Source: Schmidtea polychroa (lineage: Eukaryota). From it: a stretch of 64,000 bases of DNA. Shown here piece after piece: positions 18,958 through 19,472 of this stretch. The stretch lies in the NCBI GenBank assembly GCA_044892525.1, contig CM097885.1, forward strand, positions 30,196,001-30,260,000, written 5' to 3'. Within the stretch, counting starts at the first letter, position 1, and the number at the start of each line of letters is the position of its first letter. The notes under the pieces are model-generated. The model saw nothing but the letters and a program-made list of their open reading frames with translations. It had not been told where the DNA came from and did no database searches. The position numbers were made by a program, and so were the translations under genes.

Positions 18958-19472
18958 ATGTCTCATTTTATGGAAAGTCTTTTAAGAGAACTCGTCAACA
19001 AGAATATTATGGAAAGCCTCAGTTTCCTGGTCGATCGGACCGAAAAGATCATAGAAGGTAATCACATTGATGATGAGGATGTGATCAATTCCGATTGTCT
19101 CGAAACCAAAAAATTCTATTTTAATAGGATTTTTAACTGCCTATGCGACGAGGAGATGAAGTGGACCCGAATACTAGTAGGGTTCGCTTATATGAAGATA
19201 ATAATTGAAAAAAGTCTATGGGACTCCGAGCACTATTATCAGTGGTCTCAAGAAGTAATACTTTTATAATCTATATTTTATTAATATTTATTTTCTAGAT
19301 AATCAAGTCAAAGTTTCAACCATGGATTGAAGCCAATGGCGGATGGGGCGTACTCAATCAACTCGCCAGAAATGCGAAGGAAATAGACGATCAGAAAAGA
19401 AAATTTAAAAACTATATAAAACTTGCAACAGGTGTTGCTATTTTGTATATTTTATCCAGATTTTTTAAATAA
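18958..19472 (+). CDS. Bcl-2 family protein, 2 exons (18958-19254, 19299-19472), 156 aa
   Basis: BH1-like MKWTRILVGFAY. A 44-nt GT-AG intron joins in frame to BH2 WIEANGGW and a C-terminal membrane anchor LATGVAILYILSRFFK. Confidence 0.9.

Follow-up and report, generated by a model that had tools for sequence, protein, structure and literature searches.

A Polinton of Schmidtea polychroa carries a probably spliced Bcl-2-family gene of likely host origin

The stretch of Schmidtea polychroa DNA analysed here (the window; 64,000 nt) contains a Polinton/Maverick (adintovirus-like) element of 18,824 nt at positions 17168–35991 (strand unspecified), delimited by its ends and target-site duplication. 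The element runs from AGTAGT to ACTACT, has TIRs and is flanked by the 6-bp target-site duplication CATTAT; (AGT)2..(ACT)2 ends are given as a Polinton/Maverick motif in passages of PMC8097293. Pfam identifies genes for a TBP-like protein, an A32 ATPase (Pox_A32, E 2e-6), an rve integrase with a chromodomain (rve, E 1.9e-5), adenain (Peptidase_C5, E 4.5e-6) and a RING protein. Open reading frames of 1337 and 406 aa, conserved across groups of related elements, occupy the positions expected of PolB and capsid, labels that were assigned by eye, as the Pfam scan returned no PolB or capsid family for either frame. The element is a Polinton/Maverick with intact ends. It is also a mosaic: in its left part the DNA matches that of five further copies at 93–95% identity, while across 28043–35991 the four of these that retain PolB and RING show protein identities of about 70–77% for PolB and 37–38% for RING.

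Several further features of the window were recorded. The TBP-like ORF (145 aa, 21322–21759; Pfam TBP, E 1.4e-14) has a counterpart in the intronless relatives described below as group G. The RING ORF (34103–34480) is of the C3HC4 type, the type found at the C terminus of IAPs, and could encode a second modulator of cell death or of ubiquitin. Outside the element, positions 1–13393 hold a perfect inverted repeat of 6,215 nt with a spacer of 963 nt, part of which matches DNA inserted in another copy, and 15414–15653, 1.5 kb left of the element, holds a frame fragment resembling Complex I B14.5a (Pfam, E 3e-17).

The Bcl-2-family gene opens with an ATG at 18958 on the forward strand. Without splicing, this frame terminates after 103 aa, the same fragment that the initial annotation had noted in the ORF track. 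An inferred phase 0 GT..AG intron of 44 nt (19255–19298, +), placed by sequence comparison with indirect RNA hints, separates exon 1 (18958–19254; 99 codons encoding six predicted helices, from the translation, a structural model and alignment to the cellular protein P0065) from exon 2 (19299–19472; 57 codons plus a stop at 19470–19472), and its removal gives a product of 156 aa, exactly as first proposed. The motifs named in the initial annotation are likewise all present: exon 1 contains the BH1-like KWTR (19159–19170, +) in the context KWTRILVGFAY, and exon 2 contains the BH2 sequence PWIEANGGW (19320–19346, +), which includes WIEANGGW, followed by a hydrophobic C-terminal stretch. The latter is a tail anchor predicted by hydropathy (19416–19466, +; 17 aa with a KD mean of 1.57, stopping one residue short of the C terminus). 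Related Polinton loci with the intron form groups A–F, and loci L053–L058, which have no intron, form group G; BH2 (W..GGW) and the hydropathy-predicted C-terminal membrane anchor are retained in all intact groups.

The promoter is predicted to be of host type. A CCAAT box lies at 18883–18887 (+); CCAAT is found 57–96 nt upstream of the ATG in all eight loci examined and TATAAA upstream of the ATG in seven of these eight, which together suggest transcription by host Pol II. A tandem duplication at 18896–18935 (+) consists of two exact 20-bp units (18896–18915 and 18916–18935), each containing TATAAATA (18907–18914 and 18927–18934). This pair had been singled out in the initial annotation and is genuine, but a meaning for the family as a whole is not supported: only 1 of 30 aligned copies has it, the others reading a single TATAAATA followed by AAACA, and the X2 and X7 contigs that span the promoter region also lack it. 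The duplication is a private mutation of the window copy. As a separate observation, one X2 contig (18713–18958) terminates at the start codon of the Bcl-2 gene in a tail of 15 A. In other copies an AATAAA, upstream of this tail, shares bases with the TATA box; the duplication removes it from the window copy. This contig is possibly sense RNA lying antisense to a 166-aa ORF.

Profile and fold comparisons place the protein in the Bcl-2 family. Against PF00452 (cut-off 31.4 bits), sister copies with an in-frame intron reach 33.4–34.5 bits and the intronless L054 reaches 32.7, with exon 1 of the window copy alone falling below the cut-off at 15.3 bits (E 0.029), so that the profile match proposed at the outset was obtained on relatives of the window gene. 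A family profile of 13 rows matches Bcl-xL at E 1.3e-7. A match to Bcl-2 folds, called for in the initial annotation, was obtained with the model of exon 1 (pLDDT 89.5): the top 19 rows from VIA-align are all Bcl-2 folds, the best with a Z of 8.8 (moderate for a helical protein) and an rmsd of 2.3 over 89 aligned residues, and all 37 rows listed by Foldseek against the PDB are Bcl-2 family members, the best at E 0.059 and none at E<=0.001. These fold matches are partly circular, because Bcl-2 relatives were among the sequences aligned to build the model. A single-sequence model of L054 (pLDDT 55, pTM 0.38) gave CARD-like matches at Z<=5.3 and was set aside as low-confidence. A search of phages gave no match.

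The closest cellular gene in the S. polychroa genome, L061, is the orthologue of the Schmidtea mediterranea Bcl2-like protein P0065 (C9WPR4/ACW83059.1), to which it is 89% identical, and bears directly on the unusual BH1. Bcl-xL needs its BH1 glycine. KWTR, in which the glycine of the canonical NWGR is missing, occurs at BH1 in 29 of 30 copies, and BH1 reads W-S/T/L-R/K in all element groups; WG[RK] is retained in 25 of 41 other library matches. The initial annotation was right that the glycine is replaced, but a viral alteration of the groove is not supported, as both L061 and P0065 read RWSR. The loss is therefore inherited and predates the likely capture by the element. According to published accounts, other Bcl-2 members that lose the BH1 glycine bind BH3 differently or perhaps no longer at all, so that its absence weighs against a pro-survival role; in mouse Boo, a serine at this position changes BH3 selectivity.

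Four lines of evidence indicate that the 44 nt are a real intron: collinearity with P0065, an insert of variable length at a fixed codon, constraint on exon 2 and the intronless genes of group G. In single comparisons, exon 1 aligns without gaps to residues 37–126 of P0065 (E 1e-7) and exon 2, again without gaps, to residues 127–180 (E 2e-10), so that the two matched stretches abut directly at residues 126 and 127; 37 of the 144 aligned residues are identical between the window protein and the cellular one. An insert of 38–54 nt occurs at the same codon in 25 of 28 loci tested, spanning the six diverged groups A–F, whose exon 1 identity to the window copy falls to about 30–35%, and its lengths cover all three classes modulo 3. 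Among the remaining loci, two have no acceptor and one has no motif. The inserts start with GT in 23 of the 25 cases, the two exceptions being decayed copies that start with AT; the acceptor AG was imposed by the survey script and is not independent in this set. Of 1,773 first-look candidates in a DNA search (not a copy number), 40 places were scored, each with an identity of at least 94%. GT and AG are both conserved in all 30 close copies, and both exons and their splice sites are intact in 27 of the best 30, a share biased upward because copies were chosen by similarity.

Purifying selection acts on both exons. Among the close groups A, B and C, dN/dS is 0.09–0.11 for exon 1 (two of four pairs, the other two being saturated) and 0.13–0.30 for exon 2; distant pairs give 0.51, 0.59 or saturation for exon 2. 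Exon 2 would lie behind a stop in an unspliced message, yet it is open in a single frame only in all five groups. In group G, which has the full Polinton context, the Bcl-2 protein is one uninterrupted ORF of 144 aa. Taken with the gap-free exons, the Pfam scores and the Polinton setting, these data make it almost certain that the window carries a spliced Bcl-2-family gene, as originally claimed.

Under the contrary reading the 44 nt would not be spliced out, translation would yield only the 103-aa ORF and the frame beyond it would be a relic; this view draws on databases and on RNA. A protein search with exon 1 found two gene calls, both unspliced, and database calls end at 103–112 aa; the same search with the intronless L054 gave none among 27 candidates. 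None of the 15 of 36 contigs listed from four putative RNA runs (no run is on record as RNA) bridges the 19254/19299 junction, the RNA evidence that the initial annotation had proposed to look for; some contigs of these runs contain the intron. Against this, selection and a single open frame in exon 2, the fixed codon with its three length classes and the contiguous reading of group G across the insertion point leave this alternative with very little probability.

The putative RNA runs also contain indirect hints of a spliced and polyadenylated transcript, in the form of contig starts at the acceptor and a poly(A) tail. In run X1, two of the eight contigs listed start exactly at 19299, as a branch between spliced and unspliced forms would give; base 19298 is G in all 30 genomic copies. 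The joined 19254/19299 form was not found in the genome assembly. One X2 contig has a loose end of 21 A behind 19487, 14 nt past the AATAAA at 19468–19473, marking a likely poly(A) site (feature 19468–19487, +). Weighing against support for splicing, one X2 contig begins inside the 44 nt, and coverage in X1 extends to intronic as well as intergenic sequence. The contig alleles differ from the window copy at many sites, and other copies are for this reason the likelier source of the RNA; the window copy itself may be silent.

The Bcl-2 gene is probably not alone in this element in having acquired an intron. The D-L-G-K-E-F motif of the integrase is interrupted at 23491–23625 (+) by a likely phase 1 GT..AG intron filled with (ATT)n. 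An insert is present in three of the four loci having the motif, with lengths of 117 nt in L067 and about 41 nt in L091, and is absent from the group G locus L063. TTAGGT stands on either side of it, the pattern expected if a proto-splice site had been duplicated. A further likely GT..AG intron, of 48 nt (21147–21194, −), is read from the window sequence alone in an accessory ORF (20836–21246). Intact vertebrate Mavericks are reported to be intronless in passages of PMC8097293; here, by contrast, GT..AG inserts occur in the Bcl-2 gene and integrase of the window element and of sister groups, and are missing from both genes in group G.

The likely donor of the Bcl-2 gene, judged from sequence, is the single-copy host gene. 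L061 has one 100% match in the genome, the next match being at 48%. It shares 48% identity with group G, and the 9.9 kb examined around it are free of Polinton core genes. The element protein shares with L061/P0065 gap-free collinearity over the 144 aligned residues, a glycine-less BH1, a GGW BH2 and a hydrophobic C-terminal tail. The host gene encodes 184 aa and has an intron of about 3 kb directly after GGW, a conserved exon boundary that is characteristic of pro-survival Bcl-2 genes (passages of PMC8998228); the element gene, at 156 aa, has a shorter N terminus and no GGW intron, which suggests capture from mRNA. Conversely, its own intron precedes the end of GGW by 16 codons, at a position where L061 has none. 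This comparison of intron positions had been recommended at the outset together with a phylogeny. In a careful tree of 26 rows, from which most unnamed and other host rows were omitted, groups A–F form a clade (support 97/92), and a single clade of all Polinton copies receives only 67/79; the topology test leaves room for a link to the Burro domain (p-AU 0.17), the Burro-like domain sitting on a long branch. One capture and a single later intron gain would account most simply for these data, and gain within one lineage fits the integrase insert, which is found in the window copy, L067 and L091 but not in group G.

The tree is compatible with more than one branching order of host, group G and groups A–F, and the direction of transfer could in principle be reversed, with the host gene a domesticated Polinton gene. 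The host gene nevertheless has an ancient GGW intron position, a short branch, an orthologue in another species and no Polinton flanks, and we regard domestication as very improbable. Two other sets of Bcl-2 sequences were encountered in these comparisons. Seven near-identical NWGR-type domains (L031–L037) cluster within 0.9 Mb (G000:C4:89.9–90.8 Mb), and P0006, P0007, P0013, P0017 and P0038 are short unnamed Bcl-2 proteins that group near the planarian clade, some on contigs of 11–14 kb; other Polinton-like elements may carry them as cargo, and a search for P0006 in viral and metagenome contigs found no loci.

Together these observations suggest the following model. The element would have captured the host's single-copy Bcl2-like gene without its 3-kb GGW intron, probably through an mRNA, and a short AT-rich intron would later have been gained in one lineage (groups A–F), the lineage that also has the integrase insert. 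A CCAAT/TATA promoter of host type would drive transcription, and host machinery would splice and polyadenylate the transcript. The protein would anchor in the mitochondrial outer membrane and sequester the BH3 helices of host Bak/Bax-like proteins, with a BH3 selectivity inherited from the glycine-less donor, and as a pro-survival factor it would postpone the death of any cell with an active Polinton. In planarians, PIWI represses Polintons, and this silencing is lifted in normal differentiation (passages of PMC8532177); knockdown of planarian bcl2-1, which may be P0065 or another gene, leads to systemic cell death (second-hand, in passages of PMC6970515). We give this whole chain, a spliced, tail-anchored, host-derived Bcl-2 protein of 156 aa acting as a pro-survival factor, a probability of about 0.65; its demonstrated parts are the Bcl-2 sequence and fold, the collinearity with the host gene, purifying selection and the location in a Polinton.

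The main rival concerns function, and holds that the Bcl-2-fold protein is a groove-less scaffold directed against innate-immune signalling or autophagy. The missing BH1 glycine and the mere 37 of 144 residues identical to the cellular protein are compatible with this, and non-apoptotic viral Bcl-2 proteins exist (poxvirus A46/B14/K7 and Beclin-binding vBcl-2s, in passages of PMC7022251). All intact groups nonetheless keep BH2 and the predicted tail anchor, the host gene already had no glycine and the closest folds are BH3-binding members, and we consider a scaffold unlikely. A role in promoting death, or as a dominant negative of the host survival protein that aids particle release or biased inheritance, is more improbable still. 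Bak and Bax are themselves multi-domain, tail-anchored proteins, an architecture that the element protein shares, and an altered BH1 could act as a decoy; the LxxxGD motif of pro-death BH3 regions is, however, found in none of ten sequences, and the nearest cellular relative has a pro-survival gene structure and, in a quick tree, is distinct from the host Bax/Bak-like loci. With BH2 and the tail anchor kept and no LxxxGD, a pro-survival mimic appears most likely.

A broader proposal is speculative, and we think it rather doubtful: that an mRNA copy of an essential host survival gene has been kept under selection through a radiation of at least seven groups, that in one lineage new spliceosomal introns arose in the Bcl-2 cargo gene and the integrase core gene and so tied its life cycle to host splicing, and that Polintons and the unrelated Burro elements, both giant mobile elements, converge on blocking cell death. 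If true, apoptosis would be a main somatic defence against transposons in planarians. Less conditionally, because the likely donor is single-copy and its orthologue in a model organism has a name, the function of Polinton cargo and virus-like behaviour in somatic cells become testable. Introns likely gained in the cargo gene and the integrase set this lineage apart from vertebrate Mavericks, which are intronless, and ORF-based annotation overlooks spliced cargo genes such as this one.

The presence of Bcl-2 in a Polinton is itself not new, contrary to what the initial annotation implied: Bcl2 and IAP homologues of adintoviruses were observed by Starrett et al. 2021 (PMC8502044, section 3.2), whose Supplementary Fig. 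S2 has three Bcl2 labels, and in these passages such cargo has so far amounted to labels on genome maps. The main text and part of the supplement (without Fig. S1 and Table S1) contain no planarian term. Titles and the starts of abstracts, with subscription papers and Repbase outside the search, mention neither a planarian Polinton Bcl-2 nor its intron, and these searches turned up no published account of a single-copy host donor that can be traced, of loss of the GGW intron or of a new intron apparently gained together with one in the integrase. The added value of this locus is its traceable donor and intron history.

Like the adintoviruses, the window element is an integrase-bearing Polinton-type element with a Bcl-2-like accessory gene; unlike the planarian gene, adintovirus Bcl2 has neither a donor nor an intron described in the passages of PMC8502044. 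Planarian Burro LTR retroelements, which carry a BCL2-like motif (passages of PMC6431247, citing Grohme 2018) and to which we attribute long-ORF Bcl-2 matches in the S. polychroa genome, likewise combine a Bcl-2 domain with mobility in planarian hosts, but there the domain lies within a retroelement polyprotein and on a long branch, whereas the Polinton gene stands alone and is likely spliced. With E1B-19K, BHRF1, KsBcl-2, A179L, DPV022, F1L and M11L, the element protein shares its fold class; identities of 4–20% in the viral rows of the fold search are low and give no sign of descent from these viral proteins, for which function has been demonstrated where for the element protein it is predicted.
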